DNA from: Candidatus Levyibacteriota bacterium
GTDB taxonomy: Bacteria > Patescibacteriota > Microgenomatia > Levybacterales > UBA12049
Direction: 5' to 3'
Assembly: GCA_963722305.1 (NCBI GenBank)
Contig: CAVRKE010000002.1
Span: 251,878-315,877 of the forward strand
DNA length: 64,000 nucleotides
This document shows positions 3,708-53,076 of this stretch, in pieces. Each line of letters opens with the position of its first letter. Position 1 is the stretch's first letter. The notes under the pieces were generated by a model that did not search any database, was not told the DNA's origin, and worked only from the letters and a program-made list of their open reading frames with translations. Made by a program: the position numbers and the translations under genes.

Positions 3708-4724
3708 TTAGAAGTTGGTTGAACCTTTATAGATTTTTGGCTCCAACCAATCTTCCGGAGCATTATCGTCCTGGGTTGATTGCTGGATTTGCGGTTGTAC
3801 TTGCGGTTGAGGGTGAACACGCGCTGTTTTAGGTTGTGCTGAAGGTGTAAACCTGGGTTTTAAATCCGGTTTTAGTTCTCTTTCCAATTCTTGTACAGTT
3901 TTTGTAGGACGAAGCTCATCAAAACCCGTTTCTAAAAAAGGTTTTTCTGCCTGTTCCTCAAAGTCAACCGACAATTTTCTTCTTGGCATTGTCGGATTCG
4001 GTCTCAAAGCTCCATTTCTCATCAAAACTCCTGCCATTTCAAACGCCAAGGAACTGGTTTGGGGGTCCTGGAAATTATTGGTGGCCGTTGCAATTCCCAA
4101 CATCAAATTTTGGGAAATATCCAAATCCATTTTAAGCCCGGTAGAAAGAATCACGTTAGCGACCGCTTCCGAAACAGAAGAAAACTTTGCGGAAACCATT
4201 ACAATATCACCAAAACCCTGATTATCCGGCTTATTATCGATGTTTACAACCACCGTATCTTTTAAAACTGCCGGGTCAAACAAATGAGCAAGGTCCGAGA
4301 CTCTGGCTGCGCCGACAATAAACAGCAATTCTGGGGCACTTGTTCCCCTGGTAAATTTGACGTCTTTTTCGGAGAAATTTAAACCTTTTTCTCCGGCTTT
4401 TACCACAATATTCAGAAAGTTTTCGTCTCTGGTATAGGAAACTTTTTCGATTTCTCCTTCTCTGTAGGGAAAAGAAACAACTAAATCTCCGGATGCTTCG
4501 CCAATGCTTGTTTTTACTTCATCTATTCCAACCAGCGAAGAAACTTCAACTAATGGGGTGTTTGGAGTGGCAATACTTAACGACTTGCCTAAATCCTCAA
4601 GCGAAAGGTACAACGAAAGGGCCGCTCCCATTTCATCAACCGTCGGGTCAACCGGTGCGGCAATAGCAATTTTAGTATATTTATCTACTGCTTCTTTAAT
4701 TTTATTTATAGCTAAATTATCCAT
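3708..4724 (-). CDS. DHH/DHHA1-family phosphoesterase-like protein (NrnA/CnpB-like) with degenerate catalytic motifs
   Basis: 338 aa with NrnA-like architecture in the infB-...-rpsO operon (the same position as the Mycobacterium CnpB gene after rbfA). The DHH motif positions read ...AAPVDPTVDEMGAA... and ...NIDNKPDNQGFGD..., so the His and Asp residues are replaced. A Pro/Gln-rich C-terminal tail is present. Confidence 0.6.
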   Translation of the reverse strand: MDNLAINKIKEAVDKYTKIAIAAPVDPTVDEMGAALSLYLSLEDLGKSLSIATPNTPLVEVSSLVGIDEVKTSIGEASGDLVVSFPYREGEIEKVSYTRDENFLNIVVKAGEKGLNFSEKDVKFTRGTSAPELLFIVGAARVSDLAHLFDPAVLKDTVVVNIDNKPDNQGFGDIVMVSAKFSSVSEAVANVILSTGLKMDLDISQNLMLGIATATNNFQDPQTSSLAFEMAGVLMRNGALRPNPTMPRRKLSVDFEEQAEKPFLETGFDELRPTKTVQELERELKPDLKPRFTPSAQPKTARVHPQPQVQPQIQQSTQDDNAPEDWLEPKIYKGSTNF

Positions 4725-4766: not shown

Positions 4767-6254
4767 TCAGCTATGGGATATTACCACATCTCCTATAGTA
4801 AAGTCAAGGAACGGGGTGAGAATTACTCCTCCTTCGCCTCCGGCTTCTATCTTTGAGGCTTGCTCCTTGCCTTGCCTAACCGAGGAAACATGACTTTCGC
4901 CTAAAATTTCGTCGTTTCTCATCAGCCTGACTTTGTCTCCTTTGGCAATTCTTCCTTCGCTGACCTTTATTCCGCAAACCTGCGTTTTTTCATAAGGAAA
5001 ACTGGCCAAAATCTTGGCAATACCCATTATTTCTTCCTGTAAAGCATCCAGTTTTCCTTGAACAAAATCGTTAATTTCATCAATCATTTCGTAAATTATG
5101 GTGTAAGTCTTAACCAATACTTTTTCCGTTCTGGCTAATTTGGCCATTTCCGGTTTCAATCTGACATTAAACCCCAAGATAATTGCGCCGGTTGATTTGG
5201 CAAACAGAATATCCGAAACTTCAATATCACCGGTTTTCTGGGAAATAAATTTAACATTTTCTTCGGAAATTGAATGTACTATTGCCTCTAAAGAACCCTG
5301 ATTATCGGCACAAAGAATAATCGACAATAATTTTTTCTCTTCCATGTCAAAAGGCGAAACAGATTCTTTTGGTAACTGATTTTCTTCCTGGTAAATTAGC
5401 GGTGGTGTTTCCAGCACTTTTGCTGTGTTTGAAACGACACTGCCGACCTTTGGCACTTTTTCAAAACCCAAAACTTCTACCGCTTCACCAACACTTACTT
5501 CCTGCAAATTTTTACCCTGGTCCGAGATTAAGTTTCTGACCTTCCCTTTTGTATCATCCGAGAAAATCTCATCTCGAAGTTTAAGTCTGCCGTTTTTAAC
5601 CACTACTGTCGCTCTAGGGCCTGATTTTTGATCCATTTTCGATTCAATCACAATCCCCATAAAAGCACTGTTTGCACTGAAAGGATAAAAATTAGCCTCC
5701 CTTTTCAGTTCGTAAACTAAAAGTATTAAATCCAAAAGCTGTTTGACGTTATGTCCGGTTTTACCGGAAACTTCGATTATCGGCACATCTCCACCACTAT
5801 AGCCCTCAAGTGACACTCCTTCTTTCAAGAGTTGCTGTTTGGCTTTATCCGGTAGTTTTGCGGGATCATCAGATTTGGTTAGGGCAACGATAAACGGAAT
5901 TTTTGAGTTCTTTAGAAGCGCAATACTTTCTTTGGTTTGCGGCATAACGCCATCAACGCTTGAAACAACTAAAATTCCGACGTCTGCGGCTTGGACGCCG
6001 CGTCCGCGCATTTGGAAAAAGGCCTCATGGCCTGGAGTATCAATAAAAGTTATTTTGCGTTTTTTACCCTCGTGCTCGATCTCTATTTCCGAAGCGCCGA
6101 TTTTTTGGGTAATTCCTCCGTGCTCCCGGCTTGCAACATTAGTTTTTCTGACGGCATCCAAAAGAGTCGTTTTTCCGTGGTCAACGTGGCCTAAAACCGC
6201 TACTACCGGTGGGTAGAATTGCTTGTTTGAAATATTTTCACTTTTGTCTTCCAT
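4767..6254 (-). CDS. infB: Translation initiation factor IF-2 (short form lacking the long N-terminal region)
   Basis: 495 aa. G-domain motifs GHVDHGKTTLLD, DTPGHEAF and TKSD, followed by the beta-barrel C-terminal domains. Confidence 0.9.
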   Translation of the reverse strand: MEDKSENISNKQFYPPVVAVLGHVDHGKTTLLDAVRKTNVASREHGGITQKIGASEIEIEHEGKKRKITFIDTPGHEAFFQMRGRGVQAADVGILVVSSVDGVMPQTKESIALLKNSKIPFIVALTKSDDPAKLPDKAKQQLLKEGVSLEGYSGGDVPIIEVSGKTGHNVKQLLDLILLVYELKREANFYPFSANSAFMGIVIESKMDQKSGPRATVVVKNGRLKLRDEIFSDDTKGKVRNLISDQGKNLQEVSVGEAVEVLGFEKVPKVGSVVSNTAKVLETPPLIYQEENQLPKESVSPFDMEEKKLLSIILCADNQGSLEAIVHSISEENVKFISQKTGDIEVSDILFAKSTGAIILGFNVRLKPEMAKLARTEKVLVKTYTIIYEMIDEINDFVQGKLDALQEEIMGIAKILASFPYEKTQVCGIKVSEGRIAKGDKVRLMRNDEILGESHVSSVRQGKEQASKIEAGGEGGVILTPFLDFTIGDVVISHS

Positions 6255-43501: not shown

Positions 43502-43678
43502 AGATTAAGCCTATTTTACGTATAATTTATGGATTGAGCCTGACCATGAATAGGCATATCCCGGTTTTAGCGTCGTACAAAAATTTGGTTTACGTCAAGC
43601 TTACAAACAATTGAGCTTAACAACTCTAGTTTTTATACGCCTTGACAAAATTTCATAGTTATGCTATTCTGTACGTAT

Positions 43679-44212
43679 ATGTACAGGATAAATGAACTGT
43701 TGAAGCTAGATCGAAAAATATATCATAGCAACGATTTGGCTATTCTTTGGGAAATTACAAATAAAAATACCCTTTATACAACAATAAAACGTTATGTAAA
43801 AAAGGGGGTTCTAATTCCTGTTTTTAAGGGACTTTATACCACGATTCCCACTACTCAACTTGATCCGTTAGTCCTTGGCACTGCGATTATCCACAGGTAT
43901 ACTTACCTAAGCACCGAATCGGTACTTGTAACACACGGGGTTATTTCGCAAATAACTTACAACTATACCTTCATAAGTAGCCTATCGAAAAAGGTGACTA
44001 TTGAAGATCGAACATTTTTGTTTCGAAGATTAAACCCAAAATTTCTTAATAATCCATTCGGAATCGAAAAAAGAGGAGACGTTTACGTTGCGACTCTTGA
44101 ACGTGCGGTATCGGACATGCTTTACTTCGATCCAAAGTATACATTTGATGTTAAAAAACAAATTGACTGGAAAAAAGTCAAACAAATTCAAAAGGAAGTA
44201 GGATACGTATGA
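43679..44212 (+). CDS. AbiEi-like antitoxin (wHTH + C-terminal domain) of a type IV TA/abortive-infection pair. Start taken at MYRINEL.
   Basis: TTGACA-N17-TATTCT promoter at 43642-43670. 4-nt overlap with the downstream AbiEii gene. Typical size and position. Confidence 0.55.
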   Translation: MYRINELLKLDRKIYHSNDLAILWEITNKNTLYTTIKRYVKKGVLIPVFKGLYTTIPTTQLDPLVLGTAIIHRYTYLSTESVLVTHGVISQITYNYTFISSLSKKVTIEDRTFLFRRLNPKFLNNPFGIEKRGDVYVATLERAVSDMLYFDPKYTFDVKKQIDWKKVKQIQKEVGYV

Positions 44213-44946
44213 TTAACTTAAGACCTCAAGATACAATCCATAAATCCTATTTAAACAGGATCTTAATTGAAGTAATAGATAATCCGATTCTCTCCCAAAA
44301 TTTAGCTTTTAAAGGAGGTACCTGTGCATCCATGCTTGGGTTTCTAGACCGTTTCTCCGTCGACTTGGATTTTGATCTTATTACCGATTTTGACAAAAAA
44401 ATAATCAGAAAAGAGTTTCGACAAGTTTTTAAGAAATTAGATTTGAACATTACAATGGAATATACAAATGTAATATTTTTCCTGGTTAAATATCCAAGTG
44501 CTATAGCAAACCAAAGAAATTCTATTAAAATCAGCTTAAACGACGTAAAGATTAAATCCAACGAATATAAAGTTCAATTTTTCCCTGAAATAGATAGGCT
44601 AATGAATAGCCAGACGATAGAAGCAATGTTTGCCAATAAATTAGTCGCTGCAACTGATAGATATCGAAGATTTCATACTATTGCTGGTCGTGATATTTAT
44701 GATATTCATCATTTTTATACGAGAGGTTATAAATATAAAAGTGAAATTATTAAAGAACGAACCGGTCTTACTAGTTCTGTATACTTAAATAAATTAATCG
44801 AATTCATTAAAGAACACGTTAATCAAAAGATAGTTGACGAAGACCTTAATACGCTACTTCCAAACGATTATTTTCAGCAAATACGTAAAATTCTTATTCC
44901 CGAAACATTATTTTTTCTTTCTGAAAACAAAACTAATAAAATATAA
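44209..44946 (+). CDS. AbiEii/AbiGii-family nucleotidyltransferase toxin (DUF1814)
   Basis: 245 aa. Signature …LAFKGGTCASMLGFLDRFSVDLDFD…. Confidence 0.8.
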   Translation: MINLRPQDTIHKSYLNRILIEVIDNPILSQNLAFKGGTCASMLGFLDRFSVDLDFDLITDFDKKIIRKEFRQVFKKLDLNITMEYTNVIFFLVKYPSAIANQRNSIKISLNDVKIKSNEYKVQFFPEIDRLMNSQTIEAMFANKLVAATDRYRRFHTIAGRDIYDIHHFYTRGYKYKSEIIKERTGLTSSVYLNKLIEFIKEHVNQKIVDEDLNTLLPNDYFQQIRKILIPETLFFLSENKTNKI

Positions 44947-45036
44947 TGTGAAGATAAATTTAATATCTAAATATAATTTGTTTTTCTTCGAGTCGTAAAA
45001 ACTTTGGTTTACGACAAAATTCTTGACAAAAGTAAT

Positions 45037-45065
45037 AGTTCCTAGTACACTAGGAACTAGGAACT
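45037..45065 (+). promoter_or_regulatory. Perfect palindromic operator overlapping the -10 of the wHTH-PRTase gene promoter
   Basis: AGTTCCTAG-TACA-CTAGGAACT at 45037-45058, with an extra AGGAACT half-site at 45059-45065. The promoter is TTGACA (45023-45028), 17 nt, then TACACT. Confidence 0.55.
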
Positions 45066-45066
45066 T

Positions 45067-46041
45067 ATGACACGAACCTCAGATAAAATAATCGAATATA
45101 TTTCAAAAGCTAATCACGCTAGTGGCAAAGAGATCACAAACTATCTTGGGAATATTACCGACAGAGCAGTAAGAAAACAATTAAGATCTCTTTTACAAAA
45201 AGGTATTCTAACAAAGGTCGGAAAACCTCCCAAAGTTTATTACCAAATTAACAATAAGGTGACAGAAAAAAATATCCCTATCGACCAAAAAATCAAAGAT
45301 TTTATTGATAAGCATTACTTATATATCTCGCCAGCGGGAGAATCGCTTGAAGGTTGGAAGGGATTTGTAGCGTGGTGCAATAAAACAAACCAGGATCCTC
45401 TCAAAACAGTAAGGGATTATCAGGTCACATTAAATAAATTTAATAAGTACAAAAAAAATGGGTTAATTGACGGAATGCCAAAAATGAGAAATACCTTTAA
45501 AAAAGTATTTTTAGACAAATTATTTTATCTTGATTTCTATAGTATCGAAAGATTCGGTAAAACAAAACTTGGCCAAATGCTTTTATATGCAAAACAAAGT
45601 CAGAATAGAATTCTAATATCAAGATTGATAGATAACATTAAACCAGACATTTTAAAAATTATTTCGAAATATAAAATAGACGGTGTCATTTACATTCCCC
45701 CAACAGTGAAACGTGAGGTTCAGTTAATGAAAGAGTTAGAAAATAATTTAAGTTTACCGTTAAGAACGTTGGGGGTAACCAAAATAAAAACAGAGATAAT
45801 TGTTCCCCAAAAAACTCTTTCAAAGCTTGAAGACAGGATTGAGAACGCAAGGAAAACAATTATCGTAAATGAACATAACAAGTATAAAAACGTTCTTCTA
45901 ATTGATGACGCTGTGGGATCGGGAGCAACAATGAATGAAACGGCAAAGCAAATAAAGAACAAGGGGCTGGTGTCCGGACAAATACTTGGATTGGCTGTTA
46001 CAGGTAGCTTTAAAGGGTTCGACATTATTAGTGAGGTTTAA
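45067..46041 (+). CDS. Winged-HTH + ComF-like phosphoribosyltransferase (PRTase) domain protein
   Basis: 324 aa. N-terminal wHTH (…GKEITNYLGNITDRAVRKQLRSLLQKGIL…). C-terminal type I PRTase with PRPP motif …VLLIDDAVGSGATMNE…. Confidence 0.6.
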   Translation: MTRTSDKIIEYISKANHASGKEITNYLGNITDRAVRKQLRSLLQKGILTKVGKPPKVYYQINNKVTEKNIPIDQKIKDFIDKHYLYISPAGESLEGWKGFVAWCNKTNQDPLKTVRDYQVTLNKFNKYKKNGLIDGMPKMRNTFKKVFLDKLFYLDFYSIERFGKTKLGQMLLYAKQSQNRILISRLIDNIKPDILKIISKYKIDGVIYIPPTVKREVQLMKELENNLSLPLRTLGVTKIKTEIIVPQKTLSKLEDRIENARKTIIVNEHNKYKNVLLIDDAVGSGATMNETAKQIKNKGLVSGQILGLAVTGSFKGFDIISEV

Positions 46042-46175
46042 ATTTTTGAGACCTCTCCTTTCTAAATCATCTTTCATTTAAAAAGAACGTCTGTCGAATA
46101 GCTCCCAACTCTCCAATAACAATTAAATCCTTCATGTCGCAAAATCCTTGGGTTTGCGATGTAAATTTGAGGCTA

Positions 46176-46574
46176 TTATAGTCGATTGGTAGTCGCATGT
46201 CTTTTTAGCCACTTGGAAATCTCTTCGATCGATAGATGTTGATTCTCGACTTTTAGGGGGAATGCAACAAACTCTTTCTGACTAGCTTCAAGTTCATACC
46301 CGTTCATAAACAAAAACCTTGCAGTTGAAACCATAGCAGTTCTCTTATTGCCGTCTACAAAAGCATGATTAAACATTAAGGAATGAAACAAAGCAGCGGC
46401 TTTGTCAAAAATAGTCTGATACAAATCTTCTCCCCCGAATGAAGATTGCGGTCTCGCAACTGCAGACTGGATAAGACCTATATCTCTTATCCCATGGCTG
46501 CCTCCGTATTTTTCCACCATCTTCTCATGAATTACCAGTATGATATCCAGAGTAAGATAAGAAGTGTTTCTCAC
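46176..46574 (-). CDS. doc: Doc (Fic-family) toxin
   Basis: 132 aa. Fic motif …HAFVDGNKRTA…. Confidence 0.85.
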   Translation of the reverse strand: MRNTSYLTLDIILVIHEKMVEKYGGSHGIRDIGLIQSAVARPQSSFGGEDLYQTIFDKAAALFHSLMFNHAFVDGNKRTAMVSTARFLFMNGYELEASQKEFVAFPLKVENQHLSIEEISKWLKRHATTNRL

Positions 46575-46822
46575 TTTTTTGCAAGTTCGCTCAGTGCGGA
46601 TTTGTATTTGCCGTTAAACTTTTCCAACCAATCCATGAACTCAGGAGTTATACCGCTGGCTTTTCCAACGGAAGATCCCAAGCGACCTACGACGAGAGCA
46701 TCAGCTTCCAGATCCTGCCTGACAACTACTTTCTGTCCCGCTTTCAGCTTCTTTTCTTTGACAAAATTTGCCGGAAGAGTGACTGCCAACGAATTACCGA
46801 CTTTTATAATTGTTTGTTCCAT
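46571..46822 (-). CDS. AbrB/MazE/SpoVT-type antitoxin (Phd-like partner of Doc)
   Basis: 83 aa. …MEQTIIKVGNSLAVTLP… swapped-hairpin beta-barrel motif. 4-nt overlap with doc. Tandem ATGTTATAACA x2 operator-like repeat upstream (46840-46863). Confidence 0.8.
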   Translation of the reverse strand: MEQTIIKVGNSLAVTLPANFVKEKKLKAGQKVVVRQDLEADALVVGRLGSSVGKASGITPEFMDWLEKFNGKYKSALSELAKK

Positions 46823-47019
46823 GTTATAACAATGTTATAACAAAATACACTATTTGTCAAGACGCCCTTAAGGAACTACTTAATCTGACGGGATAATTCA
46901 AGCACAATAGGTTTGTATCATTCCCCTAGAGAAAGGTATACTGAAAACGGAGAGCCAGCGAAAATAGGTTTCGGGATAGTATTTTTACTATGCCCACTGT
47001 TAGAGCAACTGGTCTTCCC

Positions 47020-48175
47020 GGTAAGTAGAAAGCGATCTATTCCTGGTTGTGCTTGAAGGCACACATAACCAACAAGCATATCGTAGTACTTCCTAAGGCA
47101 AGACTTTTAAGCTCTCCTTTTCTTTCTTCTCTTTCTCTTCTTTCTTTAAGGCTTAAAAGAAAAGGAGGTGATGAAAATGATAGTTGTAGGCGTAGATGTC
47201 TCAAAAGACACCCTTGTTGCTGTGGCAATTGATAAATCAATACGAATAAAGCATTCATTTACCGTTAAGAATAACAAGGAAAGTATCGATAAGTGGTTAA
47301 ATGCTCTTCCGTACAAAAAGATGCTGCTCTCTTGTGAGGCAACTGCCGAATACCACAGGGTACTTGCACTTTTGGCTCTTTCTTCTAAAATACCATTGAG
47401 GTTATTAAATCCCATTGTGACTAAGCAATATACCAAAGCAACTGTTCGAAAGAGAAAAACTGACCCTCAAGACGCATTAACCATTGCTAAGCTGGCTCTT
47501 GCCGGAGAAGGAAGGCTGATAAGTACCCAAACTTTTCACATTGCCAAAACCCATGAGAGAACCGCCATAAAGCTAACACACATGAAACAGCGTCTTTTAC
47601 TAATACAACAGCACGTACAAGAGGTAGATCCGGATGATACAGCTTCTTTTGAGGAGTTGCAGGTCTGTATTGATACCATAGAACAGTCAATCAAAGCATT
47701 TAGGAAGAAAGCAGAAGAAGAGGTTGATTCAAAACTTGTTAAACTGCTTTGCTCTATACCGGGAGTGGGAGAAACAATAGCAACGGTACTTCTTGCGGAA
47801 ATCGGAGATATTAATCAGTTCAAATCAGATAAAGCCCTCGTTGCTTATGCGGGATTGGATCCAAAGGTCAAACAATCAGGAGGAAGATTACACCATAATA
47901 CCCATTTAACTAAAAGAGGCTCTCCTTACCTTAGACAGATGCTCTATACAGGAGCTTCTATTGCACAACGGCATGATAAGGAACTTAAGGCGTATTACGA
48001 GAAGAAGAGAGCTGAGGGAAAGAGGTACAAAGAAGCAACCATTGCGGTATCAAGAAAACTGCTCAATAGAGTATATGCAGTTTTAAAAAGGCAGACACCT
48101 TATATACCTGGATGAGATACATCGGTAACACTTTGAGACCAGGGGTCTTGACAAAAGATTCCTGGTCTCTAACGT
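47020..48175 (+). mobile_element. IS110-family element, copy 1 (approximate ends)
   Basis: Contains the transposase 47168..48115. Its ends were inferred by alignment with copy 2: left about ...AAGCGATCTATTCCTGGTTG..., right ...GGGGTCTTGACAAAAGATTCCTGGTCTCT. A CT-rich leader and AGGAGGTGA RBS precede the transposase gene. Confidence 0.55.
47168..48115 (+). CDS. IS110-family transposase (DEDD N-terminal domain + C-terminal HhH domain)
   Basis: 315 aa. N-terminal …VGVDVSKDTL… and C-terminal …SIPGVGETIATVLLAEIGDINQF… typical of the IS110 family. Confidence 0.85.
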   Translation: MMKMIVVGVDVSKDTLVAVAIDKSIRIKHSFTVKNNKESIDKWLNALPYKKMLLSCEATAEYHRVLALLALSSKIPLRLLNPIVTKQYTKATVRKRKTDPQDALTIAKLALAGEGRLISTQTFHIAKTHERTAIKLTHMKQRLLLIQQHVQEVDPDDTASFEELQVCIDTIEQSIKAFRKKAEEEVDSKLVKLLCSIPGVGETIATVLLAEIGDINQFKSDKALVAYAGLDPKVKQSGGRLHHNTHLTKRGSPYLRQMLYTGASIAQRHDKELKAYYEKKRAEGKRYKEATIAVSRKLLNRVYAVLKRQTPYIPG

Positions 48176-48280
48176 CTTCTCCATGAACACGCTGTTCAGG
48201 ATTTCGCTGAAGCTCAACATCAGGGGGGAGCTGCTTAGCCTCAAAATTGACTTCCTCTTAAATTATGAGATGATTTATTT

Positions 48281-49732
48281 ATGGACCCAAATATACCTTC
48301 TCAAGAAGTCCCACAACCTATTATTCAACCCCAACTTCAATCAATTCAAACTCCACCACAAACCGTTCAAAATAAACCATCTTTCAAATGGGCAATTATA
48401 ATTGTATTTTCTTTAATTTTTATATTTATAATTTCAACTGGTATTTTTTTGTTTGCAAAGAATATTCCCTCAAAACATGCAACTCAAATAGTAACGGAAA
48501 ACACTCCAAATATTACTACTATGCCAAATCAAGTCACTGGTTCAACGACAATACTTCAAAGAGTAAACGCTCAAAGAACAAATGTTTATACTGATAATTT
48601 TGTCCTATCAGACTCTATAATCAATCAGGTAATTAAGCAGGCTCAAGATCTTTCTATCATTCACAATATGGACCATCATATTGTAGGCAATGCTGTTTTT
48701 GCAGACGGACAATTAGTGTTTGCGGATATAAATAGTGGGATTTTTTCTGTAAATAGCGCTACAGGAAAAGTAAACTGGCAAAAGCAATTCTCTTCTACCA
48801 ATAACTACTCCCCGCCAAGCGTTGCTGACGGTGCGGTTTTCGCTGGAGAGGATGGTGGGATCTTACATGCTTTTAAGGAAACGACAGGCGAAGAGTTGTG
48901 GAAATTTGTGACAAGACAAATTCAGGAAACTAATGGGCTTGGAGGGTTTATTACCGTTAATGCTCGGATAAACTCGTCGCCTCTAGTAGCAAATAATAAA
49001 GTATATTTTGCTGCGGAGGATAATTATTTATATGCTCTAGATGAAAAGACAGGCAAAAAGATATGGGATTTTACTGACAATACCGAGCTTTTTAACATTT
49101 CCTTCTACAAAAATATAATTTATACTCATGATTTTGCAAAGAATATTTACGCACTTGATGCTGACACAGGAAAATTAATTTGGAAGACAACAGGCGAATC
49201 AATCTCAGATAATATTAATTTTAGTTCGTATCTCGTTATTGCCAATGATAAAGTTTACTATGTCGTTCAGGATAATAGTTTAATCGCACGTGATGCATCT
49301 ACAGGTAAATTCTTATGGGAAGTTAATTTAAGCACTGATGTAAATGCAAATATTTCAGACCCTTCAGTAACCAGCAATTATGCGTATTTGACAGATAGGC
49401 TTGGCAATCTATATATCGTTGATGCTACTACCGGAGTAAAAATAACAAGTAAAAATATTGGGCAATATAATTTATCGGCACCAACAGTTTCGGGTAACAA
49501 TATTTATTTTTCATCAAGCGAATATTTTGAAGCTCCCAACAGTAATTGTTCTTATTACTACCTCTATCTAGCAGATGGGTTGAATGGTTCAATTAAAAAA
49601 CAAGTAAAATTAGATACCGGAGATAAAATAAAGTATTCTTGTCAATTTGAGCACGCACCAATCGTTGGACAAGATAGTATTTATTTAGTTACAAATAATC
49701 AAAATATTTATTCTGTAAAAAATAGGTTCTAG
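48281..49732 (+). CDS. Membrane-anchored PQQ-like beta-propeller repeat protein (BamB/YfgL-like fold)
   Basis: 483 aa. N-terminal TM helix, then repeated …G.LYALDA.TGK..W… blades. Flanked by the two IS110 copies. Confidence 0.7.
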   Translation: MDPNIPSQEVPQPIIQPQLQSIQTPPQTVQNKPSFKWAIIIVFSLIFIFIISTGIFLFAKNIPSKHATQIVTENTPNITTMPNQVTGSTTILQRVNAQRTNVYTDNFVLSDSIINQVIKQAQDLSIIHNMDHHIVGNAVFADGQLVFADINSGIFSVNSATGKVNWQKQFSSTNNYSPPSVADGAVFAGEDGGILHAFKETTGEELWKFVTRQIQETNGLGGFITVNARINSSPLVANNKVYFAAEDNYLYALDEKTGKKIWDFTDNTELFNISFYKNIIYTHDFAKNIYALDADTGKLIWKTTGESISDNINFSSYLVIANDKVYYVVQDNSLIARDASTGKFLWEVNLSTDVNANISDPSVTSNYAYLTDRLGNLYIVDATTGVKITSKNIGQYNLSAPTVSGNNIYFSSSEYFEAPNSNCSYYYLYLADGLNGSIKKQVKLDTGDKIKYSCQFEHAPIVGQDSIYLVTNNQNIYSVKNRF

Positions 49733-49734
49733 AC

Positions 49735-50885
49735 CTGGAATCTTTTGTCAAGACCCCAGGCCCGAAACTCATATTGCTTTGACAACGTAGGGCGTTTGTC
49801 TTTTCCACACAGCGTAAGTACGATAGAGTAGTTTTCTTGCAACAGCAACAGTTGCTTCTTTGTAAAACTTACCTTCGCCTCTTTTCTTCTCGTAATATGT
49901 TTTAAGTTCCATATCATATCGCTGTGCAATACTGGCTGCAAGAAAAACTGTTCGTCGTAAATACGGTGACCCCCTTTTAGTCAGATGAGTATTATGATGG
50001 AGTCCAATGCCACTTTGTTTTACCCTGGGATCAAGACCACAAAAGGCAATTAAACAATCTCCACTGGGAAATCTGGTGATATCCCCAATTTCCGCAATTA
50101 ATGTAGTTGCAATAGTTGTTCCGACACCGGGAATACTCATTAACAGCGTGTGTAACTTTGCATCAACAGTTTTTTCCGCAAAACTCTTGAATACTTTTTG
50201 TGATTTTTGCAACTGCTGTTGACAGAGTTCTAACTGTTTTACCAATGATTCATCCATAGCAATCAACTGTAATTGTTGCTGCATTAGAATAAGCATCTGT
50301 TCCATTTGGTTAAGTTTTACTGCGGTACGTACAGCCGGTTTGCCTTGAGTAAACATGGTTTTTGTAAGTAATGTTCCTTCTCCTTGCCCAACAAGTTTTG
50401 CAACAACAAAGGCATCAGATAAATCAGTTTTTCTTTTTCTAACTGTTGCCCTAGTGAATTGTTTTGTCACTATTGGATTAAGTAAGCGAAAAGTTATCCC
50501 TCTATCCAAACAGGCAAAAGCAAGTATCTGATGATAATATCCGGTTGCTTCGGAACCAATAACTATTCTTTTCCATTTCCCGGTAACTCTTTCCAAGAAT
50601 TGTTCGATTGCGCCTTTGGTATTTTCTATGAAGAATTGTTCTTTGACACGAGATGACCGATCGATCCTAACGCCAACAAGACTATCTTTGGCCACATCGA
50701 TACCAATAACTTGCATAATTTTTCACCTCCTTCCTTTGCTCTTAATTAAAGAAGGAAGAGAAAGAGAAGGAAGAAATGGAGTTTGCCAAAAAGGTCTCCC
50801 GGTGATAATATATCGGTAGGCTTGTTTGTGATCAGCGGCTAAAACCCGCAACCTGGAATCGATCGCTTACATTATCGGGGAGACC
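49735..50885 (-). mobile_element. IS110-family element, copy 2 (inverted relative to copy 1; approximate ends)
   Basis: Contains the transposase 49769..50716. The right end ...GGGGTCTTGACAAAAGATTCCAGGTCTAG abuts the stop of the propeller gene. The left end aligns with copy 1 at about 50860-50885. Confidence 0.55.
49769..50716 (-). CDS. IS110-family transposase (about 55% identical paralog of 47168..48115)
   Basis: 315 aa with the same motif layout (…IGIDVAKDSL…, …SIPGVGTTIATTLIAEIGDITRF…). Confidence 0.85.
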   Translation of the reverse strand: MQVIGIDVAKDSLVGVRIDRSSRVKEQFFIENTKGAIEQFLERVTGKWKRIVIGSEATGYYHQILAFACLDRGITFRLLNPIVTKQFTRATVRKRKTDLSDAFVVAKLVGQGEGTLLTKTMFTQGKPAVRTAVKLNQMEQMLILMQQQLQLIAMDESLVKQLELCQQQLQKSQKVFKSFAEKTVDAKLHTLLMSIPGVGTTIATTLIAEIGDITRFPSGDCLIAFCGLDPRVKQSGIGLHHNTHLTKRGSPYLRRTVFLAASIAQRYDMELKTYYEKKRGEGKFYKEATVAVARKLLYRTYAVWKRQTPYVVKAI

Positions 50886-51167
50886 AGATGCTAGAACGGT
50901 GAGCACTTTCTCAAGAAGTCTCAAACGTCGTCACGCTGGCTCTCCGATTTCTATTCTAATCCTTCCTTAAGGTAATGATACAAACGTCGTCTCCATGCGC
51001 AAAGCTTAGGCCATGGCTCTGGGAGCCCAGGCTCAAAGAGATTTCGCTGATGCTTAACATCAGGGGGAGTTAATTAGCCTTAAGATTGACAAAAACACGT
51101 GAGTTTTGATTAATTATCCGATATTAGCCTTTCACAATTCCTAATTACACTAAAGTAGAAACCTAAA

Positions 51168-51359
51168 TTAAAATAAATCAGGAGTTATACCGCTGGCTTT
51201 TCCAACGGAAGATCCCAAGCGACCTACGACGAGAGCATCAGCTTCCAGATCCTGCCTGACAACTACTTTCTGTCCCGCTTTCAGCTTCTTTTCTTTGACA
51301 AAATTTGCCGGAAGAGTGACTGCCAACGAATTACCGACTTTTATAATTGTTTGTTCCAT
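51168..51359 (-). pseudogene. Truncated duplicate of the AbrB-type antitoxin gene (first about 60 codons identical to 46571..46822) with its promoter/operator, lacking the doc partner
   Basis: 51176-51403 is nearly identical to 46636-46866 (about 230 bp). The ORF diverges and stops after …GITPDLF. Confidence 0.6.
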
Positions 51360-51480
51360 GTTATAACAATGTTATAACAAACTACACTATTTGTCAAGAC
51401 GGTTCATAGTCGCACAATCTATGTTTGCGAAAAATTAGATGTAAATTAATTTTGGGATTCTAGTACTTTGGGGAAGGAAG

Positions 51481-51711
51481 TTAATATCCCAAAATCGATT
51501 TTCTATTGTCAGAAATCTTATTGTCAGGCCAGGTTTTAAAATGTCCCGAAACCGGAGTGCCGTCTTTTCGAGAATAACCGTTTTGATATCTAATCATTCC
51601 GCCGTGAGTATAATGCCTGCGGGCATTTGATTGATGATTGATTCCTTCGGCTTTGCTCAGGATTTCGCGATGCTCAAGATTTATGACTGATGATTTATGA
51701 ACTTGGACCAT
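51481..51711 (-). CDS. Hypothetical small protein
   Basis: 76 aa; ORF only, no supporting signals. Confidence 0.25.
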   Translation of the reverse strand: MVQVHKSSVINLEHREILSKAEGINHQSNARRHYTHGGMIRYQNGYSRKDGTPVSGHFKTWPDNKISDNRKSILGY

Positions 51712-51762
51712 CTTACGAGGTGAATATACTACTTTAACAATCTAAATTCAAATTTTTGAAGA

Positions 51763-53076
51763 CTACCTGATAAATGTTAGTGCCATTCCTATAGAAGCCA
51801 GTCCCATCCCTAAAAAAGTTGCCCAGACCAAAATGTTGGAAAGCATTCCGCTTTTATACTCCCCCATGATATTTTTGTTGCGGGCAATCAGGGCAATAAT
51901 AAAAATAAGCGGTACCGCCACTACTCCATTAATCACCGCGGCAAACACCAAGGCCTTTATCGGGTCAATTCCGATAAAATTAATAATTAAACCGATTAAA
52001 GTGGCAATGGTAATCACTCCATAAAAGCCGTGCGCCTTTTTTAACTTTTGGTTTAAGCCTTCGCGCAAATTAAACGCCTCGGCAAACGCATAAGCGGCCG
52101 AACCGGCCAAAATGGGGATGGATAAAAAACCCAAACCCAAAATGCCAACGGCAAAAATTACTTTGGCAATGTAACCGGCATTGGGGAAAGTGCTCACCAG
52201 TGGCTCTAAAGCTTTGGCGGCATCGGCGGCGGTTCGGATATTAGTAATGCCATGGGCATTAAGAACTGTGGCCGTGACAACGATGATGGCCCAGGTCCCG
52301 ACTTCCGAAAAAGCCATTCCGACCAGGTTATCGATACGTAAGTTTTTAATAAACACCTTACCGATATGTGGTTTTTGCTTGCCTTTGAGCAAATGTTCCA
52401 TCCGTTCTTCCTCGGTTTCTTCCGACGCCTGCCAGAAAAACATGTAAGGCGAAATCGTTGTCCCTAAAACTCCGGTGATAATGAATAAAAATTGGAAGTT
52501 TAACTCAAGGTGCGGAATCAGTGTCGCTTTTAGCAGTGTCAACCAGGGCTGCGTGACAATAAAAACGGTAATCGGGTAAGCAAACAAAGAAATGCACAGC
52601 CACTTAAGAATTTTGGAATAGACTTTATAGGAAGTAAAGATTTCCAATAAAAGAATTGAAACGGTGAATAAAATTGTGAGGATGACAAAATTAAGCGGGA
52701 TGATAAGGTGCGCCGCCGACGCCATCGCCCCGATGTCCGCTCCGATATTTATGGTGTTGGCGATTAGCACCAGCAAAACGACAATGTATAAAACTTGCTT
52801 GCTGTAATGAGTATTAACGACAGCCGCAATCCCCTTGCCGGTCACCGCCCCGATTCTGGCGCAGGCTTCCTGGACTGCCGCCTGGAAAGGAAACATGAAA
52901 AGTGCCGTCCACAACTGTTTGTAGCCAAACTGGGCGCCGGTTTGCGAATAAGTGGCAATGCCCGAAGGGTCGTCATCGGCCGCACCGGTAATCACGCCCG
53001 GCCCCAACAGATGAAAAAACTTTTTGAGTCTTTTGAGCATTATACTGATTGTTCCATGATTTGCAATTCTTTTCAA
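51763..53076 (-). CDS. mntH: NRAMP-family divalent metal (Mn2+/Fe2+) transporter. Probable start at MLKRLKK, about 53037.
   Basis: 437 aa. NRAMP signature …GPGVITGAADDDPSGIATYSQTGAQFGYKQLW… and 11 predicted TM helices. Confidence 0.8.
   Translation of the reverse strand: MKRIANHGTISIMLKRLKKFFHLLGPGVITGAADDDPSGIATYSQTGAQFGYKQLWTALFMFPFQAAVQEACARIGAVTGKGIAAVVNTHYSKQVLYIVVLLVLIANTINIGADIGAMASAAHLIIPLNFVILTILFTVSILLLEIFTSYKVYSKILKWLCISLFAYPITVFIVTQPWLTLLKATLIPHLELNFQFLFIITGVLGTTISPYMFFWQASEETEEERMEHLLKGKQKPHIGKVFIKNLRIDNLVGMAFSEVGTWAIIVVTATVLNAHGITNIRTAADAAKALEPLVSTFPNAGYIAKVIFAVGILGLGFLSIPILAGSAAYAFAEAFNLREGLNQKLKKAHGFYGVITIATLIGLIINFIGIDPIKALVFAAVINGVVAVPLIFIIALIARNKNIMGEYKSGMLSNILVWATFLGMGLASIGMALTFIR

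Follow-up and report, generated by a model that had tools for sequence, protein, structure and literature searches.

A Doc-type toxin–antitoxin (TA) operon in the genome of a Candidatus Levyibacteriota bacterium (assembly GCA_963722305.1, contig CAVRKE010000002.1) appears to have been split by a 4.31-kb block, and the block is bracketed by a 227-bp duplication of part of the operon. The locus lies in a stretch of 64,000 nt (positions 251,878 to 315,877 of the contig), which we refer to as the window and from whose first letter all positions are counted. The block carries a gene for a transmembrane (TM)-anchored PQQ-like β-propeller protein and two insertion sequence (IS) elements of the IS110 group, IS-A and IS-B. 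We favor a reading in which the two elements inserted independently of each other and the duplication arose by illegitimate recombination, and we assign it a probability of roughly 55%. A sequence-only reading of the same DNA had described a rearranged locus with a captured propeller gene, which our analysis bears out, and had attributed it to IS-driven duplication or inversion in a composite-transposon-like arrangement that left an antitoxin with a possible anti-addiction role, which our analysis does not bear out; the locus is an instance of ordinary genome plasticity, neither an IS-made duplication nor an anti-addiction module.

The operon is encoded on the minus strand. The intact doc gene (46176-46574) encodes a toxin of 132 amino acids (aa) that matches the Pfam Fic/DOC model (2e-19) and the structure of P1 Doc (3k33, 3e-9), and that combines the Fic/Doc fold with the sequence HAFVDGNKR, an instance of the Fic motif HxFx[D/N]xNKR, as expected of a Doc-type toxin. 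Its closest homologs sit in metagenome-assembled genomes of Patescibacteria (Candidatus Levybacteria-like). The upstream gene (46571-46822) has the same orientation and encodes a full-length AbrB/MazE-type antitoxin of 83 aa, identified by the Pfam MazE_antitoxin model (PF04014) and by a cluster alignment, and its stop overlaps the start of doc by 4 nt. The operator is a tandem palindrome, TGTTATAACA x2, at 46822-46842 that spans the −10 box, the start site and the start codon, and the −35 box TTGACA lies at 46855-46860.

A 227-nt direct repeat (99% identity, two mismatches) connects this operon with a second site. The first copy, R1 (46638-46864), comprises antitoxin codons 1–60, the operator and the promoter, and ends 4 nt beyond the −35 box; the second, R2 (51175-51401), has the same promoter and operator. 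The copies differ at 46640 (C) versus 51177 (A) and at 46845 (A) versus 51382 (C), so that the identical blocks in R1 are 46641-46844 and 46846-46864. A unique 46-bp spacer on the plus strand, u1 (46865-46910), separates R1 from IS-A, which has its left target in the final 7 nt of this spacer, ACAATAG (46904-46910). A second unique spacer on the plus strand, u2 (51096-51174, 79 bp), precedes R2 and is without significant similarity to anything to which it was compared. The sequence-only reading had already described the intact antitoxin–doc pair at 46176-46822, the near-exact duplication, a second copy with about 60 antitoxin codons and TGTTATAACA x2 but no doc, and two inverted IS110-family elements on either side of the propeller gene, and all of these observations hold.

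Comparison with five related TA loci (L005 and L102 to L105; 88–91% nucleotide identity) reveals which parts of this arrangement are old. On the R1 side the homology of all five ends at 46864. On the R2 side the homology of L005, L102 and L103 runs on to 51420-51425, and the ancestral flank of the promoter is thus the sequence from 51402 onward beside R2 (51402-51425, minus strand, TAGATTGTGCGACTATGAAC...), which is conserved in these three loci on the R2 side only. Because the homology of the relatives ends at 46864 but continues past R2, the junctions 46864/46865 and 51174/51175 are new, and because it extends on the R2 side only, a single ancestral operon survives as two halves, the doc–antitoxin pair to the left and R2 with the sequence from 51402 onward to the right. 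At the mismatch between 46845 and 51382, R2 shares its state with L102 and L103.

Neither new junction can be assigned to the IS elements. The junctions lie 46 bp (46864/46865) and 189 bp (51174/51175) from the nearest IS end and contain neither IS sequence nor an IS core, from which we conclude that the elements did not make the duplication. Searches for IS target or donor half-sites at the repeat boundaries returned poor matches only, and local alignment scores of u1, u2 and the flank from 51402 onward, compared with each other and with the two intergenic repeats T1 and T2 described below, all fell inside the shuffled range. A resemblance of u1 to the reverse complement of T2 that MAFFT had suggested was dropped for the same reason. 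Likewise, the 9-nt sequence TCCATGAAC, which T1 (48180-48188) shares with a stretch of the antitoxin gene around the left edge of R1 (46632-46640), was rejected as microhomology because it lies away from both new junctions and its chance expectation is not small.

To fix the extents of the IS elements we used 80 related loci from a metagenome scan. Among related copies, only about 46906-48172 (IS-A) and 49731-50985 (IS-B) are held in common. IS-A (46911-48166, plus strand), the boundaries of which follow from six related copies and from the guides described below, consists of GT cores at 46911-12 and 48165-66, a left end with the bridge RNA (46913-47176), a recombinase gene (47177-48115) and a right end (48116-48164). 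IS-B (49733-50985, minus strand) is a second, different IS110-group element with its cores, AC on the plus strand, at 49733-34 and 50984-85, a right end at 49735-49768, a recombinase gene at 49769-50716 and a left end with the bridge RNA at 50717-50983. Both recombinases match DEDD_Tnp_IS110 (PF01548) and Transposase_20 (PF02371) above the curated cut-offs, and the elements have long left ends (264 and 267 nt in IS-A and IS-B, respectively), short right ends (49 and 34 nt) and no terminal inverted repeats, as is typical of the IS110 group. The two recombinases share 56% aa identity and the elements about 63% nucleotide identity, uniformly along their length. IS-A is 99.4% identical over its full span to L020, a copy from another metagenome, and is therefore recent and no chimera with IS-B; this identity together with the uniform divergence of the pair argues that no exchange between IS-A and IS-B has taken place. 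IS-B is 87% identical to its relative L037 at the nucleotide level.

The left ends of both elements carry the features of a bridge RNA. A conserved anchor, GGAGAGCCAGCN, lies about 40 nt into every left end and is followed by 7 nt that match the element's own left flank. When 46 non-redundant elements were compared, these 7 nt agreed on average in 4.52/7 positions with the flank of the same element and in 2.22/7 with the flanks of other elements, and none of 5,000 permutations was as high as the own-flank value. The right guide, the reverse complement of the 7 nt past the right-hand GT, is found at left-end position ~88–100 on the 3′ side of the same loop, and it covaries among clades (GTTAGAG, GTTCTAG, GCTCGAG, GTTGGAG, TTCGGAG and others). 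This loop thus has the left and right guides of a target-binding loop, core included, and the two elements in the window match their flanks in 6/7 and 7/7 positions each: for IS-A the left target is ACAATAG (guide AAAATAG) and the right target CTCTAAC, and for IS-B they are AGACGAC (guide TGACGAC) and CTAGAAC. A donor-binding loop is present as well. Within the left end, GATTCC[T/A]GGT is identical to the right end together with its core, with the difference between IS-A and IS-B in this loop tracking the difference between their right ends exactly, and GAT[A/C]AC.AAC in the left end resembles the reverse complement of GTTTGTATC. The RNAalifold consensus of 26 left ends has two stems with internal loops and 28 pairs, 13 of which show compensatory changes, and an Rfam scan of 45500-52500 returned no bridge-RNA family or other credible family. 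The predicted junction of an excised circle, in which the right end (RE) meets the left end (LE), reads TTGACA-16 nt-TATCAT.

This guide evidence defines the core as GT and the IS extents as 46911-48166 and 49733-50985. It indicates that each IS encodes its own bridge RNA and sits in its cognate GT-core target, and that CTCTAAC and CTAGAAC, 3′ of the right ends, belong to the target and not to the IS; GTCGTC, considered as an IS end, was ruled out by the guide covariation. Because its own guides match its own flanks, each IS is a simple site-specific insertion.

The targets themselves belong to a repeat. T1 (48167-48260, plus strand) is an intergenic repeat upstream of the propeller gene; its first 7 nt, CTCTAAC (48167-48173), form the right target of IS-A, and it ends in TTGACT, part of the promoter of the propeller gene. 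T2 (50986-51095, plus strand) is its homolog downstream of the propeller gene and continues 49716-49734 across IS-B; read in reverse complement, its GTCGTCT (50986-50992) gives AGACGAC, the left target of IS-B, and GTTCTAG (49726-49732) gives the right target. The sequence-only reading had noted a repeat of about 50 bp here, which is real and nonrandom (48200-48227 versus 51040-51067, 93% identity, 0 chance matches in shuffles). When the IS elements are removed, the repeat becomes longer, extending from AATAGGT to ATTGAC with a local score of 62 versus a null of 14.5 ± 2.1, and T1 and T2 thus are homologous intergenic repeats of ~110 bp that flank the propeller gene. Without the IS, T1 reads ...AATAG-GT-CTCTA-AC-GTCTTCTCCATG...GATTTCGCTGAAGCTCAACATCAGGGGG...ATTGAC and T2 reads ...AATAG-GT-TCTAG-AC-GTCGTCTCCATG...GATTTCGCTGATGCTTAACATCAGGGGG...ATTGAC, with the common motif AATAGGTNNNNNACGTCGTC. 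The guide-derived IS-A target, AAAATAG-GT-CTCTAAC, has its GT on the plus strand of T1, and the guide-derived IS-B target, TGACGAC-GT-CTAGAAC, has its GT on the minus strand of T2 (AC on the plus strand), 7 nt further along. The uninterrupted T1 aligns collinearly with the sequence to the left and to the right of IS-B, and IS-B is therefore a plain insertion. In L021 a relative of IS-A is followed by the same T sequence, and T-like motifs occur unoccupied in intergenic regions of a related contig; in the window, no further cognate target sites beyond chance were found.

The propeller gene between the two repeats (48281-49732, plus strand, 483 aa; Pfam PQQ_2, 2e-34) is intact since its stop codon lies in native target sequence and not in the IS. 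Its sole close relative, P0001 (89% aa identity), is encoded on a contig with an unrelated neighborhood and no other similarity to the window; the homology to the window is confined to 48248-49726, and synteny between this contig and the window was not found. Downstream of P0001 lie two further genes, in both of which its promoter and 5′ region recur. The propeller gene in the window is out of its usual place, in agreement with the sequence-only reading, which had called it captured.

At the far end of the block, R2 leaves a truncated antitoxin open reading frame (ORF) of 63 aa (51168-51359, minus strand) that consists of residues 1–60 followed by DLF and a stop. It retains the −35 box TTGACA and TGTTATAACA x2, and no doc gene follows it. 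An alignment of 12 close homologs shows that antitoxin residues 1–45 and 56–83 are near invariant and residues 46–55 variable, and a structure prediction of low confidence (predicted local distance difference test score [pLDDT] 56) places strands at 5–47, then a linker, and a helix at 60–81. Truncation at residue 60 thus keeps the DNA-binding domain, leaves the 56–83 block incomplete and removes the C-terminal helix. In type II antitoxins such as Phd and MazE, the C-terminal part is the toxin-neutralizing region, and known anti-addiction antitoxins, that is, orphan or chromosomal antitoxins that neutralize plasmid toxins, retain it. The fragment lacks this conserved module, with the Doc-binding region placed by analogy to other type II antitoxins, which makes the anti-addiction role proposed by the sequence-only reading unlikely. 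By the same analogy the fragment probably cannot neutralize Doc, and if expressed it would be at most an extra, toxin-insensitive repressor of two identical operators.

We suggest the following course of events. A single operon would have been split by the block 46865-51174, a translocated propeller cassette with the order u1-T1-propeller-T2-u2, in a formal 4.31-kb insertion with a 227-bp target duplication comprising the promoter, the operator and the first 60 antitoxin codons; IS-A and IS-B would each have inserted independently into their T1 and T2 sites by means of their left-end bridge RNAs. The duplication could have arisen either by insertion at a long staggered or replicative break or by an out-of-register crossover between two chromosome copies or haplotypes. 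Post-segregational killing is established for Phd-Doc, and by this logic only products with a promoter-driven, full-length antitoxin ahead of doc would have survived. The repeated segment is just long enough, reaching 4 nt past the −35 box, to yield a complete promoter–antitoxin–doc operon, so that the TA system would stay functional; the arrangement would persist because a disrupted antitoxin would release Doc. RecA-type excision through the 227-bp repeats could restore the ancestral locus.

Several points weigh against this course of events. Informative microhomology is absent at both new junctions, and no relatives of u1 or u2 were detected among the sequences compared. What the sequences show directly is the anatomy, the IS boundaries and guides, the identity of the ancestral junction and the domain loss, whereas the route of duplication is favored by inference, the selection argument is a logical one, and the 63-aa fragment is a putative product and a putative DNA-binding protein, with a structure model of low confidence. 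The u2/R2 junction is known from the source contig alone, and if the R1/u1 junction already existed in another haplotype, the event may have been recombination between haplotypes and not insertion. One copy has independent support, in that R1 and both of its flanks are identical in a 598-bp ENA scaffold of another assembly. On the right side, the available Logan contig begins at 52417. Exact-protein look-ups with the truncated antitoxin, a 76-aa ORF, two start variants of the IS-A recombinase and one NRAMP start variant gave no result. The doc–antitoxin contig of sample ERR11594402 (L001) crosses the left edge of R1 unbroken and ends at 46844, one base before a mismatch between R1 and R2, which hints that a haplotype with the uninterrupted locus perhaps coexists.

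Possible, with odds well short of even, is a Campbell-type integration in which a nonreplicating 4.5-kb circle of R and the IS/propeller block recombined with a resident antitoxin gene over 227 bp, in equilibrium with an empty site and the circle. A single crossover would give R1-insert-R2, the right part of R1 carrying the allele of the insert and R2 that of the chromosome, which fits the 46845/51382 mismatch; the presence of the TA module in five gene contexts in five relatives implies that carrier DNA moves often, and the break of the ERR11594402 Logan contig one base before the mismatch hints at coexisting haplotypes, although this last argument is indirect. However, the two junctions of the circle itself would still require illegitimate events, which merely moves the problem back, and the block has no replication or integration gene besides the two IS recombinases, whose sites are off the junctions. 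A more elaborate and rather doubtful version is that the block is a reversible, homology-driven cassette that uses the widely traveling Doc TA module as a portable attachment site, leaves as a circle and can enter any genome in which the module is present, and carries the 63-aa fragment, with its promoter, as a functional toxin-blind repressor or heterodimer partner that would retune how the resident doc operon regulates itself.

Both new junctions could formally be explained by a large tandem duplication that extended from R as far as a second, distant propeller block, with most of one copy deleted afterward, but we consider this improbable: it requires two events and a second block copy, none is found within the 64-kb window, and the neighborhood of the propeller ortholog has no synteny to the region.

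The IS110-mediated duplication or inversion envisaged by the sequence-only reading, with an antitoxin-only module serving as anti-addiction element, is very unlikely. Two inverted IS110-family genes do bracket the propeller gene and the duplication brackets both, and IS110 elements are able to assemble IS-cargo-IS units and to cause amplification of segments (bioRxiv 10.64898/2026.03.19.712850). The reported IS110 composites, however, are direct, identical copies, whereas IS-A and IS-B are different species without chimerism, each within its own cognate left and right targets and GT cores, IS-B moreover in a site collinear with T1 on both sides. Because of their inverted orientation both left ends face outward, which makes an RE-LE donor junction impossible for the pair, and neither the position of the 227-bp repeat, off the IS ends, nor the loss of the C-terminal module from the fragment fits this reading. 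As to an assembly artefact, in which the second copy would stem from a chimeric join of strain variants, the exclusive presence of the u2/R2 junction on the source contig and the breaking of short-read contigs of another sample around these repeats would fit it, but it has little probability given that all four flanks are unique, that the copies differ at two positions, that u2 and the antitoxin gene left of the junction share no k-mer usable by an assembler, and that R1 with both flanks is reproduced in an independent assembly.

The elements of our preferred reading, a split operon with two independent IS insertions, are of known kinds. IS621 and related IS110-group bridge-recombinase elements encode a left-end RNA that has a left and a right guide each for target and donor (Durrant et al. 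2024, PMC11208160). IS-A and IS-B resemble them in the DEDD/RuvC-like and Tnp domains, the lack of terminal inverted repeats, the long left and short right ends, the target- and donor-binding loops of the left-end RNA, and the 2-nt core at both junctions; a promoter that only the circle would complete, from a right-end −35 box and a left-end −10 box, is predicted here as well. They differ from IS621 in that the core is GT and not CT, the target halves are 7 + 7 nt, the hosts are Patescibacteria and the elements are known from sequence alone, and in that the two clades use opposite strands of variants of one pseudo-palindromic site, AATAG-GT-NNNNN-AC-GTCGTC. ISPpu10 and ISPpu9 are IS110 elements that target repetitive extragenic palindromic sequences and form IS-cargo-IS units of identical head-to-tail copies (bioRxiv 10.64898/2026.03.19.712850). 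Insertion into dispersed intergenic repeats that flank genes, and a flank motif kept beyond the guide-matched bases as a possible structural determinant, are common to both cases; unlike in ISPpu10/ISPpu9, the flanking elements here are different species and inverted, and there is no sign of cargo moving through them.

The TA module likewise resembles P1 Phd-Doc in its Fic-motif Doc, a small antitoxin gene upstream of and overlapping doc, a promoter covered by a tandem palindromic operator, and a modular antitoxin with a predicted N-terminal DNA-binding and a predicted C-terminal neutralizing part, but the N-terminal domain is of the AbrB/MazE/SpoVT type and not Phd/YefM, and the mRNA is apparently almost leaderless. 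The truncated copy is similar to anti-addiction antitoxins in that its ORF is related to an antitoxin, has a promoter of its own and lacks a toxin gene beside it, and differs from them in being a fragment without the toxin-binding region, as judged from other type II antitoxins.

The two IS elements add two clades from Patescibacteria (the candidate phyla radiation) to the bridge-RNA IS110 elements. Their targets (GT core, 7 + 7 nt) can be read directly from the covariation of guides and flanks, which is useful for cataloguing the natural specificities of bridge recombinases, and sister clades split the opposite strands of one dispersed intergenic repeat. The TA locus would be a natural example of an addiction operon that tolerates an insertion thanks to a duplication restoring its promoter and antitoxin, and the leftover fragment, predicted to bind DNA only, offers a testable regulatory effect. 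Neither the bridge-recombinase nor the TA point alters current understanding.

Further features of the IS elements and their targets were observed. A CT-rich tract conserved in both left ends (47114-47149 and 50746-50781) can pair with the Shine–Dalgarno region of the recombinase gene, AAAGGAGG, and may sequester the ribosome-binding site; the corresponding hairpin of the left ends folds, with an energy not better than that of composition-matched shuffles. Beyond the 7 guide-matched bases, a pattern of ~19 nt, GCTCCG-N5-TGGACGAC, is common to the left flanks of IS-B-clade elements from many unrelated metagenomes (L036, L038, L051, L054, L059, L064, L088 and L099), and its reverse complement is found in the right flanks of IS-A-clade elements (L023, L025, L028 and L039). 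No guide explains this pattern, which may be a structural target determinant analogous to the ISPpu10 hairpin. The IS-B contig of ERR11594402 (L004) ends one base into the left target, at the equivalent of 50992, where it has C in place of T, which suggests that other IS-B sites exist in that sample. At the end of T2, a promoter-like site (51088-51116, TTGACA-17-ATTAAT, with a weak −10 box) is directed into u2 and then antisense into the truncated antitoxin, and RNA transcribed from this site would, in addition, be antisense to the first 185 nt of the intact antitoxin mRNA. In L005, the TA locus most closely related to this one, an empty composite IS target motif, ATAGACGACGTTAGAACC, follows doc at a distance of 55–70 nt (~5895-5912). 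On the contig of the propeller ortholog (L100), the propeller gene and the next two genes have an identical promoter, 5′ untranslated region and first codons (TAAATTATGAGATGATTTATTTATGGA; 2790-2830, 4431-4499 and 5729-5767), which by its recurrence appears to be a repeated expression signal for a tandem gene set.

In the operon itself, the antitoxin ATG lies only ~9 nt past the −10 box (TTGACA-17-TAACAT) and has no Shine–Dalgarno sequence (46822-46864 and 51359-51401, minus strand), which suggests that the mRNA has hardly any leader. The Doc/antitoxin module of ~0.7 kb was located at 5154-5842 in L005, 9935-10648 in L102, 3278-3991 in L103, 9959-10651 in L104 and 2474-3163 in L105, and its neighbors are alaS (L005), alaS-DUF2207 (L102 and L103), PIF1 helicase/BrnT (L104) and GH130 (L105). 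The edges of the module homology are sharp, ~10–24 nt upstream of the −35 box and directly past the doc stop, and from its distribution the module itself appears to move. Next to doc in the window, 43661-46041 encodes an AbiEii nucleotidyltransferase toxin with a small upstream partner ORF and, directly beside doc, a protein with an HxlR-like helix-turn-helix (HTH) and a phosphoribosyltransferase (PRTase) domain, and this region looks like a TA/defense islet. A palindromic operator and promoter, AGTTCCTAGTACACTAGGAACTAGGAACT, at 45024-45067 upstream of the HTH-PRTase gene recurs in L105 (2409-2443, 97% over 35 nt), just upstream of the TA module.

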